The translations under genes and the position numbers were made by a program. 64,000 nt of DNA from Candidatus Levyibacteriota bacterium (GTDB lineage Bacteria > Patescibacteriota > Microgenomatia > Levybacterales > UBA12049), in NCBI GenBank assembly GCA_016214555.1, contig JACROF010000012.1:203485-267484 (forward strand), in the 5' to 3' direction. The notes under the pieces were generated by a model, which was not told where the DNA came from, ran no database searches, and saw nothing but the letters and a program-made list of their open reading frames with translations. Below, piece by piece: positions 25,460 to 41,829 of this stretch. Positions within the stretch are counted from its first letter, which is position 1. Each line of letters opens with the position of its first letter.

Positions 25460-26221
25460 GTGAAGAATATTTACCTCTCTGTTGTCATTCCGTGTTATAA
25501 CGAAATGGCAAATCTCCGAAAGGGTGTCCTCAATAAAGTTGATTCATATCTCTCAAAAAAGAAATATTCATTCGAAGTTATTATTGTTGACGATGGATCA
25601 ACTGATGGAAGCGTCGACTTTATAAAAGATTTTGTTAGCGATCACAAAGAGTTCAAGTTTATTGCAAGCCACCACATGGGAAAAGCTGGTGCAGTTACAA
25701 CAGGAATGCTTGAGGCTAAAGGATCGTATAGACTTTTTTCAGACATGGATCAGGCTACCCCTATTGAGGAGATTGATAGCCTACTGCCATATTTTGATAA
25801 GGGATATAACATCGTTATTGGTTCACGCAGTAACAGAAGAGAGGGATCCCCTTTAATTAGGCAATTTATTTCAAGAGCTCAGGTAATTTTGAGAAAAGGG
25901 ATCGTGGGATTGCATGGAATTTCAGATACGCAGTGTGGATTTAAAATGTTTGAAGGAGAAGTCGCTGAGAGACTTTTTTCCGCAATCAAAAGTATTCATC
26001 ATGGATTTAAGAAAATTAGCGGATCCAACGTAACATCAGGATTTGATATTGAGCTTTTATATATCGCTGAGAAAATGAACTATTCTATAATGGAGGTGCC
26101 TGTCCATTGGCTTTATGTCGAGACCAGAAGAGTTAACCCAATTAAAGACTCACTCCAAGGCGTTTCTGATCTGATCCAGATAAAGCAGAATGCACTTGCG
26201 GGGAAGTATTCAAAGGCATGA
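25460..26221 (+). CDS. GT2 polyprenol-phosphate sugar synthase (DPM1/GtrB/CsbB-like glycosyltransferase)
   Basis: LSVVIPCYNE, IIVDDGSTDGS, DMDQ (DxD) and IVIGSR....QCGFKMF motifs are typical of dolichol/undecaprenol-phosphate hexosyltransferases. First gene of the supercluster. Confidence 0.85.
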   Translation: MKNIYLSVVIPCYNEMANLRKGVLNKVDSYLSKKKYSFEVIIVDDGSTDGSVDFIKDFVSDHKEFKFIASHHMGKAGAVTTGMLEAKGSYRLFSDMDQATPIEEIDSLLPYFDKGYNIVIGSRSNRREGSPLIRQFISRAQVILRKGIVGLHGISDTQCGFKMFEGEVAERLFSAIKSIHHGFKKISGSNVTSGFDIELLYIAEKMNYSIMEVPVHWLYVETRRVNPIKDSLQGVSDLIQIKQNALAGKYSKA

Positions 26222-27432
26222 GCTCTCAACAAGAAATCATCAGGCCATCACACCCACAAAAATTTTTTGAAAGACTTTTGATTTTTTTGTCTTTACTTCT
26301 TTTTCTTTATTCTTTTACTCAGGTTGATCTTGGATTGACCCTTACAAGAGCATCAATTTTTGCAACAATACAGCACGCGTTTCAGTACATAGGGTTTTTT
26401 AACCGTCCTTTGTCAACTTTTCTTTTGACTATTCTTATCATTGGATTTACGACTACTTATTTTATGTATTTGCTTTTTATCAAAAGACAACCTGTTTCAA
26501 AGGCGCATCTTTGGAGAACCATTTTTATAGTTAGCGGTGTTCTTGCGCTATCCTACACCGCCTTTTCTTACGATATTTTTAATTATATTTTTGATGCAAA
26601 AATTATTACTTTTTACCATCAAAATCCTTATCTTCACAAAGCTCTTGATTTCCCTGGTGATCCAATGCTTTCATTTATGCACTGGACACACAGGACTTAT
26701 CCTTATGGTCCATTTTGGTTAGGTATTTCTTTGCCATTTTCTTATATAGGACTGCAATTTTTTCTTCCAACCTATTTTCTTTTTAAAGGACTTGCATTGA
26801 TGGGATACTTACTTACTGTCTATTCAATAAGTCGCATTCTTCAAATGGTATCACCAAAACATGAGACGTTAGGAATTGCCTTTTTCGCTTTAAATCCTCT
26901 AGTTCTTATTGAGTCACTTGTTTCAGGCCACAACGATATAGCCATGATGGGAGTGGGAATGTTTGGATTCCATCTTTTTTTGAAGAAAAAATACTTTCTA
27001 AGCTTCATTATTCTTATTTTTTCAGCTGGAATAAAATTTGCAACAGGATTTATTATTCCATTATTTGCGCTGCTTTATGTTTTCAGGCGGAAAAACACCC
27101 AATTTTCTTGGGAGAGCATATTTTTTAGCCTTCTAATAGCTATGATTGCTTCTTTTGGCGCAATGATGATCAGATCTGGCCAATTTCAACCGTGGTATTT
27201 GTTGGTAATACTTCCTTTTGCATCACTTCTTTCAAGACATCGATATGTTCTTATTCCATTTTTTATTATTAGTTTTGGGGCGCTTCTTAACTATTTACCG
27301 TATTTTTATAGTGGGAATTGGGATGATCCCATTCCATCTATCCTTTTGCAAATCAATAGTATTACTTTGCTTATGGCGTGTATTAGTGGGGTAGTGTTCT
27401 ACCTCAGAGATAAAAAAATTGATACTAGGTAG
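26218..27432 (+). CDS. Polytopic membrane protein, putative GT-C-type glycosyltransferase (unclassified)
   Basis: ~11 predicted TM helices; ATGA-type 4-nt overlap with the upstream GT2 synthase gene. No confident family assignment. Confidence 0.4.
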   Translation: MSSQQEIIRPSHPQKFFERLLIFLSLLLFLYSFTQVDLGLTLTRASIFATIQHAFQYIGFFNRPLSTFLLTILIIGFTTTYFMYLLFIKRQPVSKAHLWRTIFIVSGVLALSYTAFSYDIFNYIFDAKIITFYHQNPYLHKALDFPGDPMLSFMHWTHRTYPYGPFWLGISLPFSYIGLQFFLPTYFLFKGLALMGYLLTVYSISRILQMVSPKHETLGIAFFALNPLVLIESLVSGHNDIAMMGVGMFGFHLFLKKKYFLSFIILIFSAGIKFATGFIIPLFALLYVFRRKNTQFSWESIFFSLLIAMIASFGAMMIRSGQFQPWYLLVILPFASLLSRHRYVLIPFFIISFGALLNYLPYFYSGNWDDPIPSILLQINSITLLMACISGVVFYLRDKKIDTR

Positions 27433-27448
27433 TATATAATTATTTTAG

Positions 27449-28963
27449 ATGAAATTTATAAAAAAAAATAAAAAATATATCCTCCTTGTCGCAATTATTA
27501 TTGTTGTTTATTTTTTAACACGCCTTGTAGCAATTAACAGTCTACCAATATTTACTGATGAAGCAATTTATCTTAGGTGGTCACAGATTGCCCTTCATGA
27601 TGCAAATTGGAGATTTATTTCTCTAACAGACGGGAAGCAGCCTCTTTTCATCTGGTTTGTGATGTTAGCTATGAAATACATCGAAGACCCTCTTATTGCA
27701 GGGAGAGTGGTATCAGTAATTGCCGGTTTTTTTACCTTGATAGGATTGTATTTTTTAGGTTCAGAAGTGTTCTCAAACAAAAAAATAGGATTACTTTCAT
27801 CTTCCCTTTATCTTTTGTATCCTTTTGCTTTGGTTTATGACAGGATGGCACTCTATGATAGTCTTGTTGGAACATTTGCGGTGTGGGCTTTGTTTGGCGC
27901 TATAAAACTCGTACGAAACCAACGTTTTGATACGGCAATGCTATTGGGTTTTGTGACTGGGGGAGCCGTATTGAACAAAACAAGTGGGTTTCTTGCCTTG
28001 TATCTTCTTCCATTCCTTTTGGTTCTCATGCCTGTCAAGGAGATAAAGAATGTCAAAAGAGTTGCTAGATTTATCCTAATGTGTGCCGTTGTGGCAGTTA
28101 TTACTTATGGGTGTTATGCCATCTTAAGACTGTCTCCATTCTTTTATATTATTGAACAGAAAAACGCTCTTTTTGTATATCCTTTTCATGAGTGGATAAA
28201 ACATCCTTTTACTTTTTTTATTCCAAATATCCGAGCGCTTTTTGACTGGTATCTTCATTATGTTGGATTACCAATGTCGCTTCTTGTTTTAGGGTCATTT
28301 TTGGTTTCAAAGTCATATTTTCGAGAAAAGATACTGCTTTTTCTATGGTTTTTTCTCCCATTTTTGGCGTTGGCACTTACAGGTAAGACTCTTTATCCTA
28401 GGTACATATTTTTTATGACACTTTTTCTTTTACCACTCTGTGCATATACTCTCATATTTTTATATGAAAAATTATCTAGGAAGGCATACTACTCCGTTGG
28501 TTTTCTTGCTATCATTTATTGGGTAATTTCATCAGGGATGGTGATAACTCAGTTTCAAAACGCACCGATTCCTAAATCAGATATTCAGCAGTATCTGACC
28601 TCATGGACATCGGGGGAGGGAGTGAGTGAAGCAATTAAATTTTTTAGAGAGAGGTCAAAAGATAATAAAATATTTGTTGGGACACAAGGTACATTTGGGT
28701 TGATGCCTTATGCATTAGAGTTATACCTTGTTGATGATCCTCAGATAGAAATGAAGTCATATTGGCCAGTTGATAATGTTTTTTTGAGAGATATACAAAA
28801 GAAAACTTTAGAGAAAGAGTCCTATGTACTTTTCTATGAAGGTTGTCCAAGCTGTCCAAGCAATGGGATTGCGCCTACTGATTGGCCTCTTGAAAAAGTA
28901 TTCCAACTAAAAAAAATTGAGCCATATACATACCTGACAATTTATAAAGTTATTCCACAATGA
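27449..28963 (+). CDS. GT-C membrane glycosyltransferase, ArnT/PMT-like (GT39/GT83-type)
   Basis: N-terminal TM then a first-loop DE motif (PIFTDEAIYLRW) characteristic of ArnT/PMT-family GT-C enzymes. ~11 TM followed by a soluble C-terminal domain. Confidence 0.6.
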   Translation: MKFIKKNKKYILLVAIIIVVYFLTRLVAINSLPIFTDEAIYLRWSQIALHDANWRFISLTDGKQPLFIWFVMLAMKYIEDPLIAGRVVSVIAGFFTLIGLYFLGSEVFSNKKIGLLSSSLYLLYPFALVYDRMALYDSLVGTFAVWALFGAIKLVRNQRFDTAMLLGFVTGGAVLNKTSGFLALYLLPFLLVLMPVKEIKNVKRVARFILMCAVVAVITYGCYAILRLSPFFYIIEQKNALFVYPFHEWIKHPFTFFIPNIRALFDWYLHYVGLPMSLLVLGSFLVSKSYFREKILLFLWFFLPFLALALTGKTLYPRYIFFMTLFLLPLCAYTLIFLYEKLSRKAYYSVGFLAIIYWVISSGMVITQFQNAPIPKSDIQQYLTSWTSGEGVSEAIKFFRERSKDNKIFVGTQGTFGLMPYALELYLVDDPQIEMKSYWPVDNVFLRDIQKKTLEKESYVLFYEGCPSCPSNGIAPTDWPLEKVFQLKKIEPYTYLTIYKVIPQ

Positions 28964-30633
28964 GATTGAATAAAAAGTTTATTGCAGGTTTAATACTAGT
29001 GCTTTTATTTCTCTCTCTTCCTCTGATTGCGCCTTTTTTTCAAAAAGGATATTTTACAACGCACGATGGTGAATGGGCAGTTGTGCGACTTGCCGATATG
29101 TACCGTGAAGTAAGAGATGGTCAGATCCCCCCGCGCTTTAGCGGAAATCTTAATAGCGGTTATGGGTACCCTCTTTTTCAATATGCTTACCCAATGCCTT
29201 ATTATTTGGGTTTAGTGTTGTATCTTTTCCAAATAGGGTTGGTAGATAGCATCAAGATTCTTTTTGCATCAACTGTATTTCTGTCAGGGGTAGCAATGTT
29301 TTTTTTATCACGAAGTCTTTGGAAATCAAACATCGCTGGTATTGTAAGTGCAATATTGTATATGTATGCACCTTATCGCCTTGTAGATTTGTACGTGCGA
29401 GGATCGATTGGTGAGTCAATAGCCTCAGTATTTTTCCCATTAATATTACTTACCATGCTCTCCTTAAGAGAGAGAATAACGCCAGTAAGAGTTGTACTAC
29501 TTTCACTGCTTACTGCCTCACTTGTCCTAACACATAATATTATGGCAGTTCTCTTTCTTGTCATTATCTTGGGATTTTTCATCTATTTTTTAATAGAAAA
29601 GGATTTTTTAACAATAAAAGCAAGTCTTATCGGGATTGTTGGAGGATTTATGCTCTCTGCCTATTTCTGGATCCCAGCGTTACTTGAAAAAAAGTATATT
29701 TTGCTTTCCATAATTCCTATTGCTGATAGAAGCCTGCATTTTGTTTCGCTTAATCAGTTGATTCTGCCAACGTGGGGATATGGCACGCCAACTGATCCAG
29801 ACGCCTTTACATACCAGATTGGACTTGCGCATATTTTTGTAGTCTTCTTGATTGGTGTAACATTTTTTCTTAAAAAGAAAGACTTGATGAGAAATATTAC
29901 AACTTTGTTTTTTATTCTTATTTCAGTTTTTTTATTTTTAATGTTCCCCTTATCAAAAGTTATTTGGGAGAACACTCCACTGCTTCATGAAATTAATTAC
30001 CCATGGACCTGTTTGATGCCTATTATTTTTTTATCTAGTATTATTGCAGGGAAAACAGCTATCACCAATTTTTTTCCACTGCAGAAAATAATAGTTGGAA
30101 TAGCATGTGTTGCTGCAATTTTTTTTGGAATTACATATGCCCGTCCTAACAAAATTGTCGATAATGGAGATGGGTTTTATTTTACAAATGATGCAACAAC
30201 AACATCATCAAAAGAATTGATGCCATTATGGGTCAAGGATATACCACAGGTTAGACCTAAAAATAAAATTGAAATTATAAAAGGGATAGGTAATATTTCA
30301 CCACTTCATATCACATCGCATAAGGCACTTTTTGAAACTGATCTTAAAACAGATGCAATTATACGGTTTAATACTATTTATTTTCCACAATGGGAATGGA
30401 AGGTTGATGGAAAAAATACTCCATACTCATACAATAATAGAGTCGGAGTAATGGATGCACATTTTACAAAAGGGCATCACAACATCTCAATAGTGCTAAG
30501 AGATACACCCATACGAATCATTTCAAATAGCATTAGCTTTGTGACATTTGTTGTTTTTGTGTTTGTCATAGTAGTGAGATTTTTAGAACTTTTTTTAAAA
30601 AGACGAATATTGATTTTTCCATATAAGTTATGA
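28960..30633 (+). CDS. YfhO-like GT-C membrane glycosyltransferase, short paralog family A (1 of 4)
   Basis: Conserved N-terminal TTHDG..H..R and FSGNLNSGYGYPLFQYAYP motifs, YVRGSIGE motif, and C-terminal YFPQWEWKVDGK..-type motif (YxPGW..VDG) shared with the 749-aa YfhO-like protein at 46562. Family name is tentative. Confidence 0.5.
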   Translation: MRLNKKFIAGLILVLLFLSLPLIAPFFQKGYFTTHDGEWAVVRLADMYREVRDGQIPPRFSGNLNSGYGYPLFQYAYPMPYYLGLVLYLFQIGLVDSIKILFASTVFLSGVAMFFLSRSLWKSNIAGIVSAILYMYAPYRLVDLYVRGSIGESIASVFFPLILLTMLSLRERITPVRVVLLSLLTASLVLTHNIMAVLFLVIILGFFIYFLIEKDFLTIKASLIGIVGGFMLSAYFWIPALLEKKYILLSIIPIADRSLHFVSLNQLILPTWGYGTPTDPDAFTYQIGLAHIFVVFLIGVTFFLKKKDLMRNITTLFFILISVFLFLMFPLSKVIWENTPLLHEINYPWTCLMPIIFLSSIIAGKTAITNFFPLQKIIVGIACVAAIFFGITYARPNKIVDNGDGFYFTNDATTTSSKELMPLWVKDIPQVRPKNKIEIIKGIGNISPLHITSHKALFETDLKTDAIIRFNTIYFPQWEWKVDGKNTPYSYNNRVGVMDAHFTKGHHNISIVLRDTPIRIISNSISFVTFVVFVFVIVVRFLELFLKRRILIFPYKL

Positions 30634-32303
30634 AAAAAATACTTTGGCCGATTATCATTCTTTGTATAGGAGTAGTAACTATTTTTCCATTATTTCATAG
30701 TGAATATTTTCCAATGCATGATAATACGCAGGTCTCTAGAGTTTCTCAGATGGCGTTATCTTTGTCAGAAGGAGCTTTTCCCGTCAGGTGGGTGAATGAC
30801 CTTGGCTATGGATATGGTTATCCTATTTTTAATTTTTATGCACCTTTTGCTTATTATGTAGGAGCGTTTTTTGTATTGTTTGGTATTAATTCTCTTATGG
30901 CTACTAAAATAATGTTTGGCATTGGGATGATATCGGCTGGTCTTTCTATGTATTTTTTGTCAAAATCTTTTTTTGGTAAAAATGCAGCAATCTTGTCATC
31001 ACTGCTTTATCTGTTTTTTCCCTACCATGCTTCGTTGTTGTATGTGAGAGGTGCTATTGGAGAGTTATTTGCTTATGGTTTTTTGCCATTGCCATTTTTG
31101 GGATTATGGCAACTGTATAAAACAGGAAAATTTAGGTATGTAATTTTGTTTGCTTTAGGATATGGAGGAATTATTATCTCACACAATCTTTCAGCGCTCA
31201 TGATAACCCCATTTATTGTTCTTGCTTGCGTATTATTGTCAGCTATTTTGTATAAAAAGAAACAAATAAGAGTAATTCTTATGATTTTTTCGGGTTTGGT
31301 ACTTTCAATACTCTTGTCATCATGGTATGTGGTTCCTGCGATTTTTGAAATGAAATTTACAAATATCTCATCAATTCTTGGGGGTGGATCAAATCCTCTT
31401 GATCATTTTGTATGTCTTAAACAGTTTTGGTCAGGACCTTGGGGTTTCGCAGGATCAACAAAAGGATGTATGGACGGCATGTCATTTGTAATAGGTAAAG
31501 TTCACGTCCTTGTTTTGGTGATTGGATTATTAACATTTGCTTACTCGCATCGATTGAAGGATAAAGAGAAAAAAGGTCTTTTATTTTTCTCGTTTTTTCT
31601 CATTTTGCTTTCTGGATTTCTTATGACTGACATGTCTTCTTTTATATGGAAGGAAATTTCTTTTCTTCACTATATTCAGTTTCCTTGGAGGTATTTATCC
31701 TTTATAGCTTTGGGTGTTGCAGTGATTGGAGGATCAATAGTATTTTTCCTTGAAAGATATCACAAGAGAAGTGCTTTCTTTTTTATATTCTTGTTTGTTT
31801 TTCTTACTGTTTTTTACAATAAGCATTATTTTATGCCTCAATATTTTTGGAGTAACGATAAAGCAGTGAGTTATTTTTCTGATACAAAATGGACAGTATC
31901 AAAAATTTCTGATGAGTATTTGCCAAGAGATTTTATCAAGCCTAAAAATAGAGATGAAATACCAAAAGAGCTAGTTAAAAACCAGCAAATTCTGAAAAAT
32001 TTTGAAATAATAGCTAACTCTGTTTATAAAAAGGAATTTATCATAGATCTTGATAGACAAACGATTATTCAAATTAACACTGCGTATTTTCCAGGATGGC
32101 AATTGTCAATTGATGACAGGAGGGATGTAAAAGGTTTTCAAAAAAATGGTATCTTTGTACTACCTCTCTCTGAGGGAGTTCATCATATAGAATTAAATTT
32201 TAAACAAACTCCTCTTGAGAGATACTCAAATTATCTTTCTTTATTAGGTATAATCATAGTACTTGCTGGGATATTGCACTCAAGAAAGGAAAAATATTTA
32301 TAG
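30630..32303 (+). CDS. YfhO-like GT-C membrane glycosyltransferase, paralog family A (2 of 4)
   Basis: FPMHDN...VRWVNDLGYGYGYPIFNFYAP, YVRGAIGE, C-terminal YFPGWQLSIDD. Tandem with 28960 (4-nt overlap). Confidence 0.5.
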   Translation: MKKILWPIIILCIGVVTIFPLFHSEYFPMHDNTQVSRVSQMALSLSEGAFPVRWVNDLGYGYGYPIFNFYAPFAYYVGAFFVLFGINSLMATKIMFGIGMISAGLSMYFLSKSFFGKNAAILSSLLYLFFPYHASLLYVRGAIGELFAYGFLPLPFLGLWQLYKTGKFRYVILFALGYGGIIISHNLSALMITPFIVLACVLLSAILYKKKQIRVILMIFSGLVLSILLSSWYVVPAIFEMKFTNISSILGGGSNPLDHFVCLKQFWSGPWGFAGSTKGCMDGMSFVIGKVHVLVLVIGLLTFAYSHRLKDKEKKGLLFFSFFLILLSGFLMTDMSSFIWKEISFLHYIQFPWRYLSFIALGVAVIGGSIVFFLERYHKRSAFFFIFLFVFLTVFYNKHYFMPQYFWSNDKAVSYFSDTKWTVSKISDEYLPRDFIKPKNRDEIPKELVKNQQILKNFEIIANSVYKKEFIIDLDRQTIIQINTAYFPGWQLSIDDRRDVKGFQKNGIFVLPLSEGVHHIELNFKQTPLERYSNYLSLLGIIIVLAGILHSRKEKYL

Positions 32304-33019
32304 TGAAAAAATTACCTGAATTGACAATTTTTTTCCCGTTTTGGAATGAAGAGAAAAACATAGCTGAAATTGTTCATAACGCCGTTGATATTATTCCAAC
32401 TGTTGCTGAAAAATTTGAGATACTTATAGTCGATGACGGGTCACTTGATGGTACGCTTAGGATTGCAAATGAGTTGGCAGAAAAATATCCCTATATTAGA
32501 GTAATTAGCCACAACGTGAATAGGGGATATGGTGCAGCGTTAAAATCAGGCTTTGAAAATGCAAAATATGACTATATTATTTTTACTGATGGGGATTTGC
32601 AGTTCAACCTACATGAAATTACAAAATTCACCGAGAATATTCACAAAGCAGATATGGTGATTGGGTATCGAAGAAAGAGGAAGGACAATAAAATAATTAA
32701 AAGATTGCTACTTATGAATCTATTAAAAATTTGGGATTTTGTTTTGTTTGGGTTCCATTTTAAAGACATTGATTGTGGTTTTAAAATGTTTACAAGGCAT
32801 GCACTTGAGGCTATTGGACCTCTTAGGTCAGAGGGAGCAATGGTTACAACAGAAATATTGGCAAAAGCTAGGAAGAAAAAACTAAAGATAATACAAGTTG
32901 GCGTTGAGCATTTCCCACGTGTTTATGGAGAGCAGACTGGGGCAAATATCTTCGTTGTTGTAAGGGCAATTCTAGAGAGTATGACACTTTTTATGGATAT
33001 TAAAAGCAAGAGGTTTTAA
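32303..33019 (+). CDS. GT2 polyprenol-phosphate sugar synthase (DPM1/GtrB-like), second copy
   Basis: ILIVDDGSLDGT, FTDGD (DxD), IGYR....DCGFKMF motifs. Confidence 0.85.
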   Translation: MKKLPELTIFFPFWNEEKNIAEIVHNAVDIIPTVAEKFEILIVDDGSLDGTLRIANELAEKYPYIRVISHNVNRGYGAALKSGFENAKYDYIIFTDGDLQFNLHEITKFTENIHKADMVIGYRRKRKDNKIIKRLLLMNLLKIWDFVLFGFHFKDIDCGFKMFTRHALEAIGPLRSEGAMVTTEILAKARKKKLKIIQVGVEHFPRVYGEQTGANIFVVVRAILESMTLFMDIKSKRF

Positions 33020-34471
33020 ATGCAAGAAATTGATATTACAACTATCACAAAACGTTCAATTCATGGAGTTTTTGCTCTTGTATCAAGAACGTTTCTTATT
33101 CAGGTGGTCATGCAGCTGGTCAGTTTTTTTCTCACAATTTATTTATTGCCTGCAGAGTATGGAGTTTTTTATATAGTTTCTGCAGCAATTGCTTTTTTAG
33201 GATATTTTTCAGACATTGGATTGGCTGCAGCTCTCATTCAGAAAAAAGAACCTCTTACAAAGGACGATCTAAGGACAACATTTACTATCCAACAGGGGTT
33301 AGTCATTGTTGTTTCAATTATTGCACTACTTTTTTCAGACCAAATTGGAAGATTTTATAGTTTAGATGGTTCTGGAAAAATACTGTATCAGGCCCTCATC
33401 TTGGCTTTTTTCCTTTCATCTCTTAAGACAATTCCATCTATTTTGCTTGAAAGAGAGTTGAAATTTCAAAAGCTGGTGATACCGGAAATTGTAGAAGCAT
33501 TTGCTTTTAGCATAACAGTTCTTACCATGGTAATCATGGGGTTTGGGGTAACAAGCTTTACTGTGGCAGTTGTACTTAGGGGGTTTTTGGGTCTTATCAC
33601 TATGTATATTGTTGCACCATGGAAGCCAGAGATTGGTTTTTCAAAGCCTACGGCAAAAAGATTATTGTCATTTGGACTTCCTTTTCAAGCAAATAGCATA
33701 TTAGCACTATTAAAGGACCAACTTCTGGTGATTTATCTTGGAAAAGCTTTGCCTCTTACTCAGGTGGGATATATAGGCGTAGCGCAAAAATTAGCCTATA
33801 CGCCTCTAAGACTTTTTATGGACAATATTATTAGAATTACATTTCCTTCGTTTTCTCGTCTTACGGGCACTGATTATCTTGGGAAGGCGATAGAAAAAAC
33901 ACTTTTTGGAATCTGCGTTTTTATTTTTCCTGCAACTGCGGGAATGGTTTTAGTTATGCCAGATTTTATCAAAGTCTTCCCTAAATATGAAAAATGGGAA
34001 CCAGTTCTTGTCTCTCTTGGGTTTTTTGCTGCTAATGCAGCATTATCGAGCATATCAACTCCACTGACTAATGCGCTAAACGCAATAGGAAAAATAAAGG
34101 TGACTTTATATTTAATGATTTTTTGGACTCTTGCAACGTGGATTAGTATACCAATATGCATTTCGTTATTTGGATTTAATGGAGTTTCAATAGCCTCATT
34201 TATTATATCTCTGAGTCTTTTTGCGGTTATCTTTATTGCAAAAAGATATATCTCGTTTTCTGTGTTGCCAGTTATTACACCTCCTTTGATCGCTACTGTA
34301 GTTATGTCAGTCTTCATTTATTTTTTGGGTAGAGGATTGATAACTTCTCTTCCAATGCTAATTATTGTTATGATAGTAGGTGGAGGAGTTTATGGAGCTT
34401 GTCTTTTTATCATTGCGAAATCACAAATATTGTCTGATTTAGCTTTAATAAAAGAAAATCTTAGAAAATAA
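33020..34471 (+). CDS. Wzx-like oligosaccharide flippase (MOP superfamily polysaccharide biosynthesis protein)
   Basis: 483 aa, ~12-14 TM, N-terminal region typical of Wzx/RfbX (..GVFALVSRTFLIQVV.. then a charged loop). Confidence 0.7.
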   Translation: MQEIDITTITKRSIHGVFALVSRTFLIQVVMQLVSFFLTIYLLPAEYGVFYIVSAAIAFLGYFSDIGLAAALIQKKEPLTKDDLRTTFTIQQGLVIVVSIIALLFSDQIGRFYSLDGSGKILYQALILAFFLSSLKTIPSILLERELKFQKLVIPEIVEAFAFSITVLTMVIMGFGVTSFTVAVVLRGFLGLITMYIVAPWKPEIGFSKPTAKRLLSFGLPFQANSILALLKDQLLVIYLGKALPLTQVGYIGVAQKLAYTPLRLFMDNIIRITFPSFSRLTGTDYLGKAIEKTLFGICVFIFPATAGMVLVMPDFIKVFPKYEKWEPVLVSLGFFAANAALSSISTPLTNALNAIGKIKVTLYLMIFWTLATWISIPICISLFGFNGVSIASFIISLSLFAVIFIAKRYISFSVLPVITPPLIATVVMSVFIYFLGRGLITSLPMLIIVMIVGGGVYGACLFIIAKSQILSDLALIKENLRK

Positions 34472-34472
34472 T

Positions 34473-35399
34473 ATGGCGAAACTTTCAGTAGTGATTTCTG
34501 TACTAAATGGTGCTGCGGTTATAGAGGATTGTTTAAAGTCTGTTGAGTGGGCAGATGAGATTATTGTTGTGGATCATGAGTCAACAGATGGAACACTCAA
34601 GATTGTTAAAAAATATACAAATGATATTTTTTCTCAACCTAACGACATTACAAAAATTGATATTCAAAAAAACTTTGGATTTAAGAAAGCAAAACATGAA
34701 TGGATTTTAAGCATTGATGCTGATGAACGAATAGACGATGAATTACAAAAAGAAATAAAGGAAGTTATTGAACACATGTATCAAGATGCATATGCTATTC
34801 CTCGTAAAAATATTATTTTTGGGAAATGGATAAAGCACTCAATCTGGTGGCCTGATTATCAAATAAGACTTTTTCGAAAGGGTAGAGCAGAGTACGTTGA
34901 TGCAGTTGTTCACAAAGATATCCAGGTGAAAGGGACAGTAGGAAAGCTAACAAATCCTCTTACGCATGAAAATTATCAGACGGTCAGTCAGTACCTTCAA
35001 AAAATGGATGTATATACCGAAAGCGAGGCTCTTTCATTTATCAAAAACAACACCCATTTTTCGTGGATTGAGGCTGTGAGGATGCCTATAGGTGATTTTT
35101 TAAAAACATTTTTTTTCCAAAGGGGATATAAAGATGGGTTTCATGGCTTAGTACTAAGTGTGCTTCAGGGTTTTTATATGTTTTTGGTAGTTATAAAAGT
35201 ATGGGAGAAGCAAGGATTTAGAGAGGAAAACGATAAGCATTTCTTAAAAAATCTTTTGCGTGAATGGGAAAGGTATCAAAAGGAAGTTTCTTATTGGTTT
35301 ATGGTTTCATTTATTCAATCATCAGGAAATTTTATTGAAAAAATTCCCTACAGGCTAAAAAGAAAGTATCTTGATCAAAAATTAAAAAAAGAGTTTTAA
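34473..35399 (+). CDS. GT2 family glycosyltransferase (Glyco_tranf_2 'DADE' type), paralog 1 of 3
   Basis: LSVVISVLNG, IIVVDHESTDGT, ILSIDADE motifs. Paralogous to 44430 and 58492. Confidence 0.8.
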   Translation: MAKLSVVISVLNGAAVIEDCLKSVEWADEIIVVDHESTDGTLKIVKKYTNDIFSQPNDITKIDIQKNFGFKKAKHEWILSIDADERIDDELQKEIKEVIEHMYQDAYAIPRKNIIFGKWIKHSIWWPDYQIRLFRKGRAEYVDAVVHKDIQVKGTVGKLTNPLTHENYQTVSQYLQKMDVYTESEALSFIKNNTHFSWIEAVRMPIGDFLKTFFFQRGYKDGFHGLVLSVLQGFYMFLVVIKVWEKQGFREENDKHFLKNLLREWERYQKEVSYWFMVSFIQSSGNFIEKIPYRLKRKYLDQKLKKEF

Positions 35400-35983
35400 T
35401 TAAGTTTAATTCTAGTTAGATTGAGCCACTTTTTACCTTCAAGCATAGATTTATCTTTTCCATCATAGTCAAGATAGCCATTTACTTTCCTTAGATCACT
35501 AATTGATTTTATAAATGCTATTGTTACGTTATCCCCGCTTTGATAGACAAGTTCATTTTTATCATATTTGATCGTGTTTTTTGGTATGGACATAACTTGA
35601 TCTATGGTTTTTGCGTCTGTGATAATATCAACGCTGGCAATTTTGTTAGATTCAAAATAAAGTACCGGATTATTATTTGCATTTTTAGCATCTGGAATTA
35701 AAAACTCTTCTGGAATCGATGTAATATTTTTATTAGCAATACCAGCTTTATTATAAAGAATACTTCCATATGAGTAGAATTCTCTAAATTTCCAAAATAC
35801 CTGAGGATTGATAGGGTCGTCTATAAGGGTATGCATAAACATTTCCCATTCTTTTTCACGATCCATTTTCAAAAAGGATGATGTCTTAGGGTTTAATAAG
35901 AAAAAGGATGCTAGAATTATGCCAAAAATAAGAAAAAACATTAGGTTGTCATGTGATGTTTTTATTTTTTGTGTTTTGTCCAT
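35396..35983 (-). CDS. Hypothetical N-terminally membrane-anchored extracytoplasmic protein
   Basis: Single N-terminal TM then a 160-aa hydrophilic domain. Lies on the opposite strand inside the glycosylation cluster. Confidence 0.4.
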   Translation of the reverse strand: MDKTQKIKTSHDNLMFFLIFGIILASFFLLNPKTSSFLKMDREKEWEMFMHTLIDDPINPQVFWKFREFYSYGSILYNKAGIANKNITSIPEEFLIPDAKNANNNPVLYFESNKIASVDIITDAKTIDQVMSIPKNTIKYDKNELVYQSGDNVTIAFIKSISDLRKVNGYLDYDGKDKSMLEGKKWLNLTRIKLN

Positions 35984-36006
35984 AGTTCTTATATAATTTT
36001 TGTATA

Positions 36007-37698
36007 ATGAAAATACTCAGAAGTGATCTGGCTGCTCTTTTATGTATTTTATTGTTTTCTGCACTTTTCGTATCAGATCTTTTTATCTCAAAAGGGCTTC
36101 CAACAACTTTTGATAATCCCTTTCATACAACAAATATCACTCAATTTTTTTTGGCAATAAAAGATGGCGATTTCCCTGTTAGATGGTCTGATGGATTTGG
36201 GAATTATGGACTCCCAATTCCTATTGTAGCACACCAATTAACGAGTTATTTAGGAGCATTACAGCTTTTTTTAGGAATGACTCCTGAGATATCGTTAAAA
36301 ATACTTTACTTCCTCGGTGTATTTTTTTCAGCTCTATTTTTTTATATCTTTATGAGGCTTTATGTTCAAAGAGTATATGCTTTGGTAAGTACATTCATGT
36401 TGACATTCTCCTCATACAGAATATTTGATGTTTATGTAAGAGGGGCGCTTCCAGAAGTTTTTTCTGGGATATTTCTTCCAACTATTTTGATTGGTAGCTT
36501 TCTTTATATAAAGAAACAAAAAATAGCAGGTTTTTACCTTGTAATGATCTCTGTTTTTCTTCTTGCATTAAACCATCCAATGATGCTTTTTCTCTACTCA
36601 TTTATTTTTGTACCTTACATAATTTGGCTCTTGTTAGCAGATGAAAAAATTACTATTTCTACACTATTGAAAACATTTACAAGTAGAAAGGCAGTTATAT
36701 TGGTATTTTCCGGATGTGTAGGAGTTATGATGGCTTCATTTTACTTAATTCCACTAACGAAGGAAATAAAATATTTTTATTTTGGGCATCTAGATAATCC
36801 ATTTAATAAAAATAGCTTTTTATCACTGGCAAACATATTTAGCAACACATGGCCGTATTTTACAGATAAAGAAATTTCACCACGAGGACATGTAGTACTA
36901 CTTGGTTTAGTTGAATCATTTTTGGTGCTATTTGGTGCAATTATTCTTATTATAGAAAAATTTAAAAAAAAGGGAAAAATCGGCACATCTTTACTTTTTT
37001 TTGCAATACTTGAGTGTTTTTTTCTCCTATTTATTATGTCTCCATTTGCATCCACTTTATTTACATCAAATAAATTTCTAGGAAATATTCAGTTCCAATG
37101 GAGAATTTTATCAGTATTTATTTTTATCCCTCCGATCATTTTGGGTTATAGCTTATCAAAATTTCATAAGAACAGCTTTGTTATTGTAGCTATCGTCGTA
37201 ATTTCATTCATCAGTTTTCCTCAAATTTATGGTAAAAATTATCAAGTGATTAATGAAGGCGTATACTATTTTACGCCATATAATGTTCATTCAATTATGA
37301 TGAACACCATATGGACTGGCAAAACAGAAGAGTACCCAGTTCGAGGAAATAAAAGTGATATTATTGATGGAAAGGGAAAAATCGATCAACTATTTGTTTT
37401 AAATTCAAAAAGAGCCTATCAAATAGATGCAAAAACTCCACTTAGGCTAGTTGATTACACTTTTTATTTTCCAGGATGGCAGGTCAGCGTAGATGGTTCT
37501 CCAAGCGATATTGAATTTCAGGACCCTCAATTTCGAGGTGTAATTACGTATCATGTGCCGCAAGGGAAACATAAGGTATTAATAGAATTTAAAGAAACAA
37601 AACTTCGCTTGTTTGCTGATATAATAAGTATGGTTGGGTTGATGTTATTTATCATGTTGTTATTTTTAAAAAATAAGATCAATAGATTCATTTCATGA
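36007..37698 (+). CDS. YfhO-like GT-C membrane glycosyltransferase, paralog family A (3 of 4)
   Basis: FPVRWSDGFGNYGLPIPIV, YVRGALPE, C-terminal YFPGWQVSVDGS. Confidence 0.5.
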   Translation: MKILRSDLAALLCILLFSALFVSDLFISKGLPTTFDNPFHTTNITQFFLAIKDGDFPVRWSDGFGNYGLPIPIVAHQLTSYLGALQLFLGMTPEISLKILYFLGVFFSALFFYIFMRLYVQRVYALVSTFMLTFSSYRIFDVYVRGALPEVFSGIFLPTILIGSFLYIKKQKIAGFYLVMISVFLLALNHPMMLFLYSFIFVPYIIWLLLADEKITISTLLKTFTSRKAVILVFSGCVGVMMASFYLIPLTKEIKYFYFGHLDNPFNKNSFLSLANIFSNTWPYFTDKEISPRGHVVLLGLVESFLVLFGAIILIIEKFKKKGKIGTSLLFFAILECFFLLFIMSPFASTLFTSNKFLGNIQFQWRILSVFIFIPPIILGYSLSKFHKNSFVIVAIVVISFISFPQIYGKNYQVINEGVYYFTPYNVHSIMMNTIWTGKTEEYPVRGNKSDIIDGKGKIDQLFVLNSKRAYQIDAKTPLRLVDYTFYFPGWQVSVDGSPSDIEFQDPQFRGVITYHVPQGKHKVLIEFKETKLRLFADIISMVGLMLFIMLLFLKNKINRFIS

Positions 37699-39419
37699 AG
37701 ATCATCAATACATATAAATTTCTTCTTGTCATTATTTTTTTTAGTTTTGTTTTCAGGGGGTTATACCTAAATTATGTTCCAACGGCGACAAACAATGATC
37801 AACTCCATTATCTCCTTGATGGTAAGTCAATGTATGTAACAGGCAAAAACCTTGCAGGAGATAGATCACTTTTTGATATCTTAATGTTTCATTACCCAAA
37901 AAATGAAACAGTTCAAGCTGAGCTTCCTTATATTTTTTCGATAATTACTGTTGGCCCTTTTTCATTTTCCCTTGCTCATGCAGCTATGCTTAGTGTCTTT
38001 TTAGGAGTAGGTGTCGTGATTTTGCTGTATTTCATAGGTAAATTTCTTATTAATGAAAAATTTGGAGTTATTCTTGCTCTCCTTGCTTCATCCAATCCAT
38101 GGTTTATCTCAATGAGTAGGAGCTCGTATGAAATGATCTCAGCGACATTTTTTTACCTACTTACTTTTTTTATATTTCAGATAGCTAAAGGAAAATATTT
38201 ATATCTTGCAATCCCAGCGATGCTTTTAAGCTTTTATTCTTATATTGGAACAAAATTAATATTTTTACCCTTTGTTGCAATCTGTATTGTATATTCGTAT
38301 CTAGTTCTTCAAAAGAAAAAGTATAAAAAGGAATTTATTATCATTTTTTCTTTTTCAGTTCTGTTGATGGCTTTTTTCTTTTTTCAACTTTCTAGACAGC
38401 CAGAACTTTCAAGGGTTAATGAACTTTTTTTACCATGGAATTCACATGTCACCAAAAACGTTGATCATCTAAGGCATGTGTCTTTAGTGTCTCCTCTGTC
38501 GTCGATTGTTGATAATAAGTACACAGTATATGTGAGGACTGTTATCGCCAATATAGCTAATGTATTTTCTCCTGGTTATCTTTTTGAATATGGTGATTAT
38601 TTTTATTCATTAGAGAGGTACGGAATCTTTCATATCATTGATGCAGCTTTTTTGATTATTGGATGCATTTTTTTCTTTACAAAAATGAAAAAGAAATCAG
38701 TCGTCTTCCTATTTTTAATCGGTATTAGTATTCTTCCTCAAATATTTCATGATCCAGAAGGCACAGGAAATTTTACACCTCACATTACCCTTTTGATCCC
38801 ATTTTTACTTATTGTTATTGCATATGGGATTTATTTTCTTATTGAACTTGATGAAGTTAAGAAATATAGAAAAGTAATTTGTTTATTTATCATAGGAGCG
38901 TACCTAGCATCTCTTTTGCATTTTTCACAAGTTTATTTTTTTCATCATCCTCTTGTTGGGAATATTGTTTCATTTCCAAACAGAGCAGTTGCTTCATATA
39001 TTAGTAGAGCTTCTCAGAGTAAGAAGATTGTTGCACATGTCAGTAACCCTCAGCTGTCAGTTAGAGATTATCTTTTTTATGCAAATGCGATGAATAATAA
39101 AAATGTATCAGAGGTTAGTAGTAAATTGAGGAACAAGAATTACGTATTTAAGAACGTTTTGTTTGTTCAATGTACTGATGAAGTTGATGAGAGAGGCGCA
39201 ACTGTTGTTTATGAATCGATGTGTAATCATAAAACAAAGGAAAATGGTCTTGAACTGGCTCAGCTTCGCGATAGCGCAGCAGCGTACGAAATTAATAATG
39301 ACAATTTGTGTAGTAGGTTTGGGCAAAAAAACTTCATATCCTCTGTTCCTTTCAGAAATTTACATATTGAGGCAATAAGCGATAAAGAGTTTTGTGAGAC
39401 TTATGTTATAAATTTATAA
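37695..39419 (+). CDS. Polytopic GT-C-type membrane glycosyltransferase (PMT_2/ArnT-like, divergent)
   Basis: ~12 TM with a first-loop acidic motif (NNDQLHYLLDG) and a large C-terminal soluble domain. Similar overall architecture to the WDE-family paralogs, but divergent. Confidence 0.4.
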   Translation: MKIINTYKFLLVIIFFSFVFRGLYLNYVPTATNNDQLHYLLDGKSMYVTGKNLAGDRSLFDILMFHYPKNETVQAELPYIFSIITVGPFSFSLAHAAMLSVFLGVGVVILLYFIGKFLINEKFGVILALLASSNPWFISMSRSSYEMISATFFYLLTFFIFQIAKGKYLYLAIPAMLLSFYSYIGTKLIFLPFVAICIVYSYLVLQKKKYKKEFIIIFSFSVLLMAFFFFQLSRQPELSRVNELFLPWNSHVTKNVDHLRHVSLVSPLSSIVDNKYTVYVRTVIANIANVFSPGYLFEYGDYFYSLERYGIFHIIDAAFLIIGCIFFFTKMKKKSVVFLFLIGISILPQIFHDPEGTGNFTPHITLLIPFLLIVIAYGIYFLIELDEVKKYRKVICLFIIGAYLASLLHFSQVYFFHHPLVGNIVSFPNRAVASYISRASQSKKIVAHVSNPQLSVRDYLFYANAMNNKNVSEVSSKLRNKNYVFKNVLFVQCTDEVDERGATVVYESMCNHKTKENGLELAQLRDSAAAYEINNDNLCSRFGQKNFISSVPFRNLHIEAISDKEFCETYVINL

Positions 39420-41012
39420 GTTTTTACTTCTTTTTACACCAATAATAAGAAGAAGAACGATCACTGAGCCTATCGATAGCATATTTGAAAACATTCTTAT
39501 TTTTGTATCTTCAAAGATAATTTCAATAAAATGGTTGCCTTTGTTAATTGTGAAAGTTATCAGTCCTTGATGATGTGGGTCCTGAAATTGAACAGGCACT
39601 TTTTTTCCATCAACATATACATTCCATCCTGGGAAATAGAGTGTATTATCTAATATTGTTAGTTCATCATGGGAGTAGGAATTGAAAGTATGCTTTATTG
39701 ATTTTTTGGATACATTTTTTATTTCACCGCTTCCGCCTATAATCTCAATATTTTTTTTTATTTCTCTTTCTGGATCACCAGGAGACCATATGGGAGTTGC
39801 CTCTGCTCGAAATGTGCTACTCCCACGATAATGCTGATAAAAAGAGTCTTTGTGAGTTTGAGATGGAATTATTTTTATAAAAGGTATCGCATAGAGTATA
39901 GAACAAAAAGCAAGAAGTACTAAAAATTTTATCGATATTTTTTTGTATAGGGATGAAAATAAGACAGCAGTTGAGAGCGATGATAGCATCATAAATCTCC
40001 ATGGAAATTGAAACTTTTTTAAAAAATCACTTTTCTCCCATAGAAAAATAGAAAAATTTGTGCTTAGAAATAATCCAATTAAAAAAACGATGATCCAGAA
40101 TGCTAGTATGGATTCATTAGCTCTTTTTTTAATAAAATAGTACAAACCTAGCACAGCTACTATTAATGCTGGTATTCCCACTTGGGGAGATAAGCCACCG
40201 ATTTTATTTACATCATCATCAAAACCCCACGGTGAATAGAACAAGCTTGTTAGTTGTAAAAAATGATCTTTGTACATATCTTTATGGAAAATAAGAAAGC
40301 TCATGTATTTTGACTCAATAAGTGAGGGTATCCAAAAATAAGATGAAATGCCAAGTCCAAATAGGAGAATAGGAAGCCACGTACGTAATTTGTGTCTTCT
40401 TATAAGGCAATAGAAGACAAATATTGGAGTAATCATTAGACTAACGCCATTATGGGAAAGAAGTATTAGGGTATACGCAAGTATTCCAAGAAGTAGCTTT
40501 TTGTTTTTCGCATCTACAGAGTAAAAGATTAATGGTATCAGGCTATATGCTAATATTTCTCCGATAGAACCTCTCACTAGTGTTGTTAGGAATCGATACG
40601 GCATGACTGTATAAAAAATACTTGATACAAACGCAAAATTTTTATTCGTAAGTTCTTTTGTCCATAGAAACCAAAAAACAGGTCCAAGAATAAACGAAAA
40701 GATAAGTAAGAGCGTATACGAGTTTTCAAGAGATAATCCCAGCAGATGGAAGAGTGCTGTTATGTATCCTGCGAAAGGATAAAATACGAGAAAAATTGGA
40801 GAACCATACCCAAAATTAAGTAGCGGTGCCCATCTGGGAGGAAATTGCATTTCAATTAGTGCATTCGCATAAGCATTTTCTCTAACAATGTGAACAAGCC
40901 CATCGTGGGTTATGAAGAAAGGGTGAAAAAAAATTGGTAAAAGTAATACAAGTGAAAATACGATAAGTATACTTACTATCCATAATGATGGTAGGTGAAG
41001 CAGTCTTTGCAT
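39414..41012 (-). CDS. YfhO-like GT-C membrane glycosyltransferase, paralog family A (4 of 4), inverted orientation
   Basis: FITHDGLVH...FPPRWAPLLNFGYGSPIFLVFYP, LVRGSIGE, C-terminal YFPGWNVYVDGK. The only family member on the minus strand. Confidence 0.5.
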   Translation of the reverse strand: MQRLLHLPSLWIVSILIVFSLVLLLPIFFHPFFITHDGLVHIVRENAYANALIEMQFPPRWAPLLNFGYGSPIFLVFYPFAGYITALFHLLGLSLENSYTLLLIFSFILGPVFWFLWTKELTNKNFAFVSSIFYTVMPYRFLTTLVRGSIGEILAYSLIPLIFYSVDAKNKKLLLGILAYTLILLSHNGVSLMITPIFVFYCLIRRHKLRTWLPILLFGLGISSYFWIPSLIESKYMSFLIFHKDMYKDHFLQLTSLFYSPWGFDDDVNKIGGLSPQVGIPALIVAVLGLYYFIKKRANESILAFWIIVFLIGLFLSTNFSIFLWEKSDFLKKFQFPWRFMMLSSLSTAVLFSSLYKKISIKFLVLLAFCSILYAIPFIKIIPSQTHKDSFYQHYRGSSTFRAEATPIWSPGDPEREIKKNIEIIGGSGEIKNVSKKSIKHTFNSYSHDELTILDNTLYFPGWNVYVDGKKVPVQFQDPHHQGLITFTINKGNHFIEIIFEDTKIRMFSNMLSIGSVIVLLLIIGVKRSKNL

Positions 41013-41082: not shown

Positions 41083-41829
41083 TTGTGTTTCATGTATAAT
41101 AATATAATTGTGAAATTATCGATTATTATTCCTGTTTATAATGAAGAGAAGACAATATCTGAAGTTGTTCGTGAAGTTAACGATGTAGTAATACCTGAGG
41201 TAAAGAAAGAAATAATCATCGTTAATGATTGCTCTACTGATAATACAGAAAGTGTCCTAAATAAGATAAAACAAGCAAGTAAGGATTTGATTATCATTAA
41301 TCATGAAAAAAATAAAGGGAAAGGCGCTGCTGTCAGAACAGGGTTTTCACATGCAACTGGTGATTATGTGATTATCCAAGATGCCGATTTAGAATATAAC
41401 CCTCAAGATTTTAAAAAATTGATTAAGCCGATCGTAAAAGGTGAAGCGCAGGTAGTCTATGGGACACGTTTGAAAAAAATGCCAGACTTGAGCGGGCATG
41501 GAACGATGTCTAAGACAAGATTTCTTCTCCATTTTTTTGGAAACAGGTTTTTGAGTTTGATTACAAGCATCCTTTATCTTCAATGGATAACTGATATGGA
41601 GACTTGTTATAAAATTTTTCCAAGAAAATTTCTTAAAAAAGTAACATTGAACGGTGAAGGTTTTAACTTTGAACCAGAAATAACCGCTAAGCTGGTGAAG
41701 TCAGGATATAAAATTGTTGAACTTCCCATTACGACTAAGCCTCGTGGATATAATGAGGGTAAAAAACTGCAAACATTCCCTGAGGGATTTAGTGCTTTGT
41801 GGACGTTGCTAAAATATAGATTTGTCTAG
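41083..41829 (+). CDS. GT2 polyprenol-phosphate sugar synthase (DPM1/GtrB-like), third copy
   Basis: LSIIIPVYNEE, IIIVNDCSTDNT, IQDAD (DxD) motifs; C-terminal region typical of the family. Confidence 0.85.
   Translation: MCFMYNNIIVKLSIIIPVYNEEKTISEVVREVNDVVIPEVKKEIIIVNDCSTDNTESVLNKIKQASKDLIIINHEKNKGKGAAVRTGFSHATGDYVIIQDADLEYNPQDFKKLIKPIVKGEAQVVYGTRLKKMPDLSGHGTMSKTRFLLHFFGNRFLSLITSILYLQWITDMETCYKIFPRKFLKKVTLNGEGFNFEPEITAKLVKSGYKIVELPITTKPRGYNEGKKLQTFPEGFSALWTLLKYRFV

Follow-up and report, generated by a model that had tools for sequence, protein, structure and literature searches.

Four paralogous genes and their shared motifs

We analyzed a 64,000-nucleotide (nt) stretch of a Candidatus Levyibacteriota genome (GenBank assembly GCA_016214555.1, contig JACROF010000012.1, positions 203,485 to 267,484), referred to here as the window, and focused on four paralogous open reading frames (ORFs) for membrane proteins that lie in a cluster of glycan biosynthesis genes. 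Genes are named by their lower coordinate in the window. We consider it probable that the four ORFs are old subfamilies of the PF10131 family of C-fold glycosyltransferases (GT-C) and act outside the cytoplasm, passing sugars from a lipid-phosphate carrier to a surface glycan or glycoprotein. The four are as follows.

28960-30633, plus strand: PF10131 GT-C paralog A, 557 amino acids (aa); Pfam PF10131 score 32.3 bits; BLASTP against the other three at E 4e-49 to 5e-63
30630-32303, plus strand: PF10131 GT-C paralog B, 557 aa; Pfam PF10131 score 39.3 bits
36007-37698, plus strand: paralog C, the most divergent of the four, 563 aa; carries TFD, HP and VRGALPE variants of conserved motifs
39414-41012, minus strand: PF10131 GT-C paralog D, 532 aa; Pfam PF10131 score 37.9 bits

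The original prediction had described a four-member paralog family with conserved N- and C-terminal motifs and lengths of about 530 to 565 aa. Its coordinates and lengths were confirmed, and BLASTP, profile and alignment results bear out the family itself. When the 30 protein products of the region from 23.9 to 62.9 kb were compared all against all by BLASTP, the four ORFs paired end to end (26 to 31% identity over 530 to 565 columns, E 1e-37 to 5e-63), and their full-length matches were limited to one another. A family hidden Markov model (HMM) made from 55 members scored 473 to 670 bits against the four paralogs and matched a 749-aa YfhO protein of the window weakly (E 9.5e-9); it matched no other window protein. 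Paralog D corresponds to HZC02_04390 (100% identical) and paralog C to HZC02_04380; NCBI annotates both, together with HZC02_04375 (the neighboring gene 35396), as "hypothetical protein."

The motifs named at the outset are in register across alignments of the four paralogs, and a regular-expression scan found them confined to the four and the 749-aa protein. Their positions are thus conserved as proposed, although residues deviate slightly from the proposed wording in 28960, 30630 and 36007. The (T/M)HD segment after the first transmembrane helix (TM1) reads THDG, MHDN, TFDN and THDG among the four, such that 36007 has TFD and not THD. P-x-R-W is PPRF in 28960, GYG-x-P is NYGLP in 36007, and VRG-x-IGE is VRGALPE in 36007; Y-F-P-G-W-x4-DG begins as YFPQW in 28960 and ends as IDD in 30630.

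Assignment to PF10131 and remote relationship to YfhO

The four paralogs had been labeled YfhO-like, a family label that Pfam does not support. Three of them (28960, 30630 and 39414) clear the gathering cutoff of PF10131 (PTPS_related, 26.4 bits), and none of the four matches PF09586 (YfhO, cutoff 28.5 bits) at E ≤ 0.1. The fourth, 36007, has no significant Pfam match of its own; it belongs to the family by the family HMM (480 bits), and among its orthologs in other genomes, most have PF10131 and/or PF20176 (DUF6541) matches. No NCBIfam model covers the four. The one paper found to mention PF10131 (PMC7801869) places it in the GT-C clan, with "function unknown." Only the first half (about positions 1 to 300) of the 621-position PF10131 model matches the window proteins, which are about 530 to 565 aa long, with a compact beta-sandwich and a terminal transmembrane (TM) helix; Pfam detects no PTPS domain in them. 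The four ORFs are therefore added members of a known, experimentally uncharacterized GT-C family, in a context that is typical for the family.

The YfhO protein proper is encoded farther along the cluster.

46532-48781, plus strand: YfhO-family GT-C, 749 aa; Pfam PF09586 E 3.2e-16, 59.3 bits; family HMM E 9.5e-9 in collinear segments

The listed start of this ORF, a TTG at 46532, puts its first 34 nt inside the upstream GT4 gene. An ATG at 46562, eleven codons inside, gives a 4-nt ATGA overlap with the upstream stop and is the likelier start, as the earlier work had used.

Several alignments connect the paralogs to this protein. It carries HYPSWSVLIDG at residue 708, and a C-terminal stretch of about 40 to 90 residues links it to the paralogs (BLASTP E about 2e-5). 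Family HMM positions 465 to 510 match its residues 702 to 743, with HMMER core and C-terminal matches collinear, so the proposed common C-terminal motif holds. At the N terminus, family profiles align with it over 200 to 230 columns at an hhalign probability of 92 to 94%, and the Asp of the paralogs' THD/TFD segment pairs with the Asp of its IPADT segment. The four and the 749-aa protein do fall into distinct Pfam families, which the original prediction had named as a refuting outcome, but PF10131 is itself listed in the GT-C clan. By these alignments, the relationship is genuine but remote, and "short YfhO-like" describes the architecture of the paralogs, not their family membership.

YfhO is the GT-C component of the CsbB/GtcA/YfhO system, which adds N-acetylglucosamine to lipoteichoic or wall teichoic acid in Bacillus, Staphylococcus and Listeria. 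The paralogs resemble it in a collinear TM core that includes the Asp after TM1, in a C-terminal beta-sandwich motif (Y/H-x-P-x-W-x4-DG), and in having, as YfhO has CsbB, a family 2 glycosyltransferase (GT2) partner gene nearby (PMC8035078, PMC11898649). Unlike the window YfhO, they are about 200 aa shorter and have an extra terminal TM helix, which a hydropathy scan does not find in the longer protein; unlike CsbB/GtcA/YfhO, the flippase of their cluster is Wzx-type and not GtrA/GtcA-type. Teichoic acids are not known in bacteria of the candidate phyla radiation (CPR).

Predicted structure and conserved residues

We built AlphaFold2 models, using family alignments, for 39414 and for the Pfam-negative 36007. 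The predicted local distance difference test (pLDDT) was 93.1 for 39414 and 93.3 for 36007, with a predicted template modeling score (pTM) of 0.93 for each. Both models contain about a dozen membrane helices in a bundle, an all-beta sandwich of about 80 residues (421-500 in 39414 and 450-528 in 36007), and a last long helix (504-531 and 532-553, respectively) that a hydropathy scan also calls TM. Structural comparison gave the following matches, each with its two figures as given.

Pmt4: 17.9 and 21.2
STT3B: 17.6 and 20.2
Pmt2: 17.2 and 18.6
AftD: 15.1 and 18.5
AftA: 15.4 and 17.6
PglB: 15.8 and 17.0
ArnT: 16.0 and 16.3
AglB: 16.1 and 15.7
ALG12: 15.3 and 16.4

On these models, the four paralogs are predicted to have a bona fide GT-C fold, with a membrane core superimposable on those of solved GT-C enzymes. 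Sequence identity to Pmt1/Pmt2/Pmt4, STT3, AglB and PglB is 7 to 14%, and no PDB entry matched the paralogs by sequence profile. The architecture comprises the GT-C core, an invariant Asp after TM1, the beta-sandwich with YFPGW, and the last TM helix, with the loops and sandwich predicted to be extracytoplasmic.

The same enzymology could also serve protein acceptors (pilins, S-layer or other surface proteins), as in PMT, PglB and AglB. The folds are neutral on acceptor class, because the Aft enzymes and ArnT score almost like the top protein-glycosylating neighbors. Unlike PMT and oligosaccharyltransferases (STT3, AglB, PglB), the paralogs lack a MIR domain by Pfam and a WWDYG-type periplasmic domain, with the sandwich of about 80 residues as their soluble domain; neither WWD nor a WWDYG-type motif occurs in the family consensus or at conserved positions. 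The neighboring genes (Wzx flippases, GT4s, GT2s, an epimerase, an aminotransferase and methyltransferases) look like a polysaccharide locus. We therefore regard protein acceptors as unlikely.

Conservation across the family is given here in 39414 numbering. Fifteen positions are invariant in 55 homologs (D37, R60, G70, R147, E152, P160, P229, G279, W338, W409, T457, P461, W463, G483 and G492), far beyond chance, and 32 positions are at least 90% conserved among 191 family members. The latter include D37, G55, W61, G70 and P72 in the first loop after TM1; P138, Y139, R147, G148 and E152 in the YVRG-x-IGE segment; H187, E233, W262, Q335 and W409, along with W338 and R339 of the FPWR loop; and, in the beta-sandwich, Y459-F-P-G-W463, G483 and G492. 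D37, also invariant in the 4- and 57-sequence alignments, sits in the model between TM1 (helix 9-29) and the first loop helix (38-53). In ArnT, PglB and PMT, the position right behind TM1 is the signature site of an acidic residue that acts in catalysis or binds metal, and by analogy we infer that D37 may have a catalytic role in the paralogs.

These residues bear on whether the proteins are transferases at all. If they were inactive scaffolds, the invariant Asp after TM1 and the accompanying conserved Arg, Glu and His would be unexpected; if they were Wzy/WaaL-type polymerases or ligases, or hydrolases of lipid-linked sugars, their best structural matches would hardly all be active lipid-phosphate-sugar transferases, with the expected partner enzymes encoded next door. 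We consider these alternatives highly improbable and retain the assignment as GT-C transferases.

Divergence among the paralogs had been placed outside the catalytic motifs. Mean pairwise identity does peak in the conserved loops (first loop 35%, YVRG loop 42%, FPWR loop 39%) and is lowest, at 15%, in the linker before the beta-sandwich. The changes that separate the clades, in contrast, adjoin conserved residues. Under strict settings (at least 80% within each clade and at least three different residues) there were no clade-specific positions, and a relaxed search returned eight (59, 61, 65, 66, 79, 188, 378 and 456), all next to conserved residues. The 36007 clade has invariant variants of this kind: His to Phe before D37, Asn to Pro after H187 (HP for HN), and Gly to Pro before E152.

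Age of the duplications

Synonymous sites are saturated at the identities concerned (26 to 31% between paralogs and 60 to 63% to the nearest orthologs), which makes the dN/dS per region first suggested unfeasible. In its place we used identity per region, conserved and clade-specific positions, and the relative identity of orthologs across the cluster. Each paralog has closer relatives in other genomes than in the window:

28960: 52%, 49% and 41% identity for the closest orthologs elsewhere; overall 35 to 52% in loci L002, L069, L070 and others
30630: 39 to 46% identity
36007: 63% and 54% identity, then more than 100 clusters at 39 to 50%
39414: 60%, 52% and about 40% identity

The closest orthologs exceed the paralogs by 130 to 580 bits. 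In a neighbor-joining tree of 191 sequences, built without bootstrap values, each window paralog falls in an exclusive clade with 9 to 33 sequences from other genomes, and 111 sequences form further clades with no window member.

Multiple copies are common elsewhere, as the survey of related genomes first suggested for these genes shows. Among 80 loci from GTDB species representatives, covered to 10 kb on either side, 33 hold two family members and 11 hold three (44 of 80 multi-copy). These loci span Levybacteria, Gottesmanbacteria, Curtissbacteria, Shapirobacteria, Woesebacteria, Chisholmbacteria and unnamed Patescibacteria. Searched exhaustively with a profile, the family numbers 23,366 cluster representatives at E ≤ 1e-3, of which 8,075 pass E ≤ 1e-30. 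Together with the multi-copy loci, these counts indicate that the family is large and old and that multi-copy clusters are its normal state.

Sequence comparison thus indicates that the four paralogs are old subfamilies conserved across related genomes and not recent local duplicates. The original prediction had read their divergence as local diversification of donor or acceptor specificity. Differing specificities remain a reasonable reading for glycosyltransferase paralogs, but diversification of recent duplicates within this lineage does not agree with the closer orthologs and the separate clade of each copy.

Rates of divergence differ within the cluster. Compared with the related locus L001, the PF10131 proteins are 60 to 63% identical, YfhO 61% and PMT_2-like proteins 58 to 70%, whereas cytoplasmic GT2s are 68 to 84% and the flippase 89% identical. 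The lower identities suggest that the outward-facing GT-C enzymes evolve faster than their cytoplasmic partners.

Gene order and the inverted copy

Paralog D is the one copy on the minus strand. It is convergent with 37695, on the plus strand, with a 6-nt overlap, and divergent from the GT2 gene 41083, also on the plus strand, across a 70-nt gap. At only 60% protein identity, L001 keeps the whole gene order of window positions 32.3 to 51 kb, including the opposite strand of the 39414 ortholog. The convergent pair 37695/39414 is kept in L001, L002 and L083; the L002 copy lies elsewhere in the cluster, and in L083 the pair is inverted and has switched sides relative to 35396/36007. Most more distant genes of the 39414 clade are codirectional, with the 41822 ortholog directly after them (L003-L007 and L031). 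In L005, L006 and L031, a 41083-type GT2 lies directly upstream of the paralog D ortholog on the same strand.

The inverted copy had been attributed to a past rearrangement or to recombination between paralogs. Gene order does differ among relatives, which agrees with a past rearrangement. Recombination between paralogs, on the other hand, is unsupported, because a DNA repeat search found paralog-to-paralog similarity of only 38 to 48 nt at 68 to 73%, in the codons of YFPGW, and nothing more. From these comparisons, the inverted copy reflects an old rearrangement of a conserved convergent two-gene module that moved as a block.

Gene order is also kept around the other copies. At least eight loci retain the 28960-30630 tandem. 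The order 30630-32303-33020 recurs in L039, L046, L062 and L069, and the block 25460-26218-27449-28960-30630 in L002. L029 keeps the first three genes of this block, followed after 27449 by a 39414-like copy.

These data bear directly on the view that the four genes are a lineage-specific YfhO-like expansion, under local selection for new specificities, with one copy inverted by recombination between paralogs. Four copies within 12 kb, one of them on the other strand, and the variable gene order around the inverted copy would fit such a history. They are outweighed by the much closer orthologs and separate clades, by the retention of the full arrangement, inverted copy included, in L001 at only 60% protein identity, and by the widely kept tandem; in addition, the DNA similarity, limited to motif codons, is too little for homologous recombination, and Pfam assigns PF10131 and not YfhO. 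Orthologs, synteny and Pfam together largely refute this scenario, to which we assign a very low probability.

Membrane partner and fused double copies

Immediately upstream of paralog C lies a small gene on the opposite strand.

35396-35983, minus strand: single-pass membrane protein, 195 aa, divergent from 36007

The protein has no Pfam or NCBIfam match. A gene for it divergently adjoins every 36007-clade gene examined, in the window and in four other loci, at a gap of about 20 to 25 nt. Its homologs are encoded as follows.

L001, 15025-15612
L083, 7377-7976
L084, 7388-7981
L085, 7380-7979

They share the motifs W-x-FREFYS-x-G and NG(F/Y)xD(Y/F)DGKDK. The homolog search returned five proteins, by a word-index method that is insensitive to fast-evolving short proteins. 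A role as accessory subunit or as acceptor is possible for the 195-aa protein.

The 28960/30630 tandem raises the further question of partnership between paralogs: the two might form an obligate heterodimer, in the manner of Pmt1-Pmt2 or EmbA-EmbB. Its order is conserved, and the start of 30630 overlaps the stop of 28960 by 4 nt. There are also single ORFs in which PF10131-type copies, two or more and each complete, follow one another head to tail (P0246, 1116 aa; P0247, 1093 aa; P0248, 3329 aa; P0257, 1670 aa), and the terminal TM helix makes such fusion topologically possible. In P0246 the N-terminal half is closest to 28960 and the C-terminal half to 30630, which is the tandem order of the window; P0247 is represented by three sequences on at least four contigs from different sources. 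Against this, few of the 150 best representatives are fusions, the halves of P0247 are in reversed order (with small margins), and many loci have a single copy. An obligate heterodimer, in place of two independent enzymes, accordingly seems doubtful to us.

Glycan cluster and proposed function

From about 25400 to the end of the window at 64000, almost every gene belongs to glycan biosynthesis, and GC content falls from about 0.41 to about 0.33 near 26 kb, where this cluster begins. It extends over more than 37 kb, with at least 13 GT-C genes of four kinds (GT87/MptB-like, PMT_2-like, PF10131 and YfhO), eight GT2s, two GT4s and a flippase. Comparison with other loci suggests that the cluster is conserved in Levybacteria and other Microgenomates. 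The genes nearest to the paralogs, and the remaining glycosyltransferase genes, are as follows.

25460-26221, plus strand: short soluble GT2, candidate polyprenyl-phosphate-sugar synthase, heading the 25460-30630 block; Pfam Glycos_transf_2; best NCBIfam models PgfS, ArnC and PpgS, below cutoff
26218-27432, plus strand: GT87/MptB-like GT-C; Pfam GT87 25.5 against a cutoff of 25; NCBIfam MptB 37.8 against a cutoff of 40
27449-28963, plus strand: PMT_2 GT-C gene (Pfam PMT_2), its stop overlapping the 28960 start by 4 nt
32303-33019, plus strand: short GT2, candidate polyprenyl-phosphate-sugar synthase, directly downstream of paralog B; adjacency to 30630 orthologs conserved
33020-34471, plus strand: MOP/Wzx-type flippase; Pfam Polysacc_synt_3 E 1.4e-43; NCBIfam MOP and O-glycosylation flippase models, below cutoff
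41083-41829, plus strand: short AglJ/PpgS-like GT2, divergent from paralog D; NCBIfam below cutoff
25460, 32303, 34473, 41083, 43516, 44430, 48778 and 58492: GT2 genes
45486 and 61817: GT4 genes
60769: UDP-sugar 4-epimerase-like gene

Paralog B is followed by GT2 32303 and the flippase 33020, and gene starts in the cluster overlap upstream stops by 1 to 4 nt, which suggests operons. A promoter and terminator scan of 35.3 to 41.9 kb found fewer sites than in shuffled sequences and is uninformative. Three GT2s (25460, 32303 and 41083) are only 238 to 253 aa long and are closest, among NCBIfam models, to PgfS, ArnC, AglJ, PpgS and dolichyl-phosphate hexose transferase. Each adjoins the PF10131 genes (32303 after 30630, 41083 divergent from 39414, and 25460 heading the 28960 block), an arrangement kept in relatives.

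In multi-component transmembrane glycosylation, a GT-A enzyme in the cytoplasm charges polyprenyl phosphate with a sugar, a flippase exports the product, and a GT-C enzyme transfers the sugar outside (PMC8035078); CsbB/GtcA/YfhO uses this scheme (PMC11898649). GT2s next to PF10131 genes and the conservation of that adjacency match its pattern, and the Wzx-type protein of the cluster is a candidate for the export step. By analogy with YfhO, GtlB, ArnT, PMT and Aft enzymes, we propose as the likeliest mechanism that the short cytoplasmic GT2s 25460, 32303 and 41083 would load a sugar onto polyprenyl phosphate, the Wzx-type flippase 33020 would flip this loaded lipid to the outside of the membrane, and each PF10131 enzyme would pass it to a cell-surface polymer or protein. 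What sets the four paralogs apart would be donor, linkage or acceptor. That the donor is a lipid-phosphate sugar, that the active site faces outward and that the four divide the labor is inferred.

Several points weigh against this proposal. All GT2 matches to polyprenyl-phosphate-sugar synthases are below equivalog cutoffs, and the window ORFs scanned, which were those of 120 aa or more, gave no match to a GtrA-type flippase. The literature searched shows no PF10131 member with demonstrated activity. The outside-facing topology is drawn from analogy and a crude hydropathy scan, and adjacency is the one ground for pairing a given GT-C with a given GT2.

Other known systems share parts of this plan. 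ArnT transfers 4-amino-4-deoxy-L-arabinose from undecaprenyl phosphate to lipid A and works with ArnC. The window, by contrast, has no lipid A pathway context, and its 238- to 253-aa GT2s are short against the 316-position ArnC model. In mycobacteria, AftA, AftB, AftD, EmbA/B/C, MptA/B and PimE build arabinogalactan, lipomannan and lipoarabinomannan from polyprenyl-phosphate sugars; more generally, polyprenyl-phosphate-mannose-dependent mannosyltransferases of the MptB kind are best known from Actinobacteria. Unlike the mycobacterial GT-C enzymes, to which they have no close sequence relationship, the paralogs lack an AcpM partner and large carbohydrate-binding modules, and their host is a small-genome CPR bacterium.

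We also entertain, tentatively and with less confidence than the transferase assignment itself, the possibility of an extracytoplasmic assembly line. The PF10131 subfamilies, YfhO, the GT87/MptB-like protein and at least six PMT_2-like enzymes might together build a complex surface polymer stepwise from polyprenyl-phosphate monosaccharides, as mycobacteria build arabinogalactan and lipoarabinomannan. A 28960/30630 heterodimer may fit this possibility, since fused versions exist, and so may a 36007 subfamily that works with its co-located 195-aa membrane partner. If true, this would be the first functional assignment for PF10131 and would suggest that Microgenomates-type CPR bacteria carry a major envelope glycan not yet described.

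CPR bacteria are uncultivated and episymbiotic, with very small genomes, and this one spends at least 37 kb on one glycan cluster. The family of its four PF10131 genes counts thousands of metagenomic members, and the four combine a GT-C fold with old, separately conserved subfamilies and fixed gene partners. Those partners (a GT2, the 195-aa membrane protein and a PMT_2-like gene) offer handles on envelope composition. Multi-copy GT-C families are common in glycan clusters, and the finding, while sound, is fairly ordinary and of modest interest.

Further genes of the cluster

The cluster holds a second, larger paralog family of PMT_2-like GT-C proteins.

37695-39419, plus strand: divergent PMT_2-like polytopic protein, 574 aa; BLASTP to 51435, 49740, 53054 and 41822 at E 1e-16 to 7e-8
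41822-43519, plus strand: PMT_2-like GT-C
49740-51413, plus strand: PMT_2-like GT-C
51435-53057, plus strand: PMT_2-like GT-C
53054-54661, plus strand: PMT_2-like GT-C
27449-28963 and 59192-60715: probable further members

Genes 49740, 51435 and 53054 are in tandem, their products 34 to 37% identical, and 41822 and 37695 are more distant.

Two further polytopic proteins had no Pfam match at E ≤ 0.01.

54701-56443, plus strand: polytopic protein, 580 aa
56446-58446, plus strand: polytopic protein, 666 aa

Weak homologs of the two (25 to 26% identity) recur in related clusters, with L005 and L006 matching 56446, and both may be further unrecognized GT-C-like enzymes.

The cluster runs at least 10 kb past the end of the window (L082, 11050-21053), where it includes a second flippase, further GT2 and GT4 genes, an asparagine-synthase-like (AsnB-like) gene, methyltransferases and a DegT aminotransferase.

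Many of the GTDB contigs that carry related loci (L007-L009, L011, L012, L015-L017 and others) are titled "uncultured Gammaproteobacteria bacterium." These record titles look like placeholder or wrong taxonomy, because the gene content of the contigs matches that of Levybacteria and Gottesmanbacteria loci.

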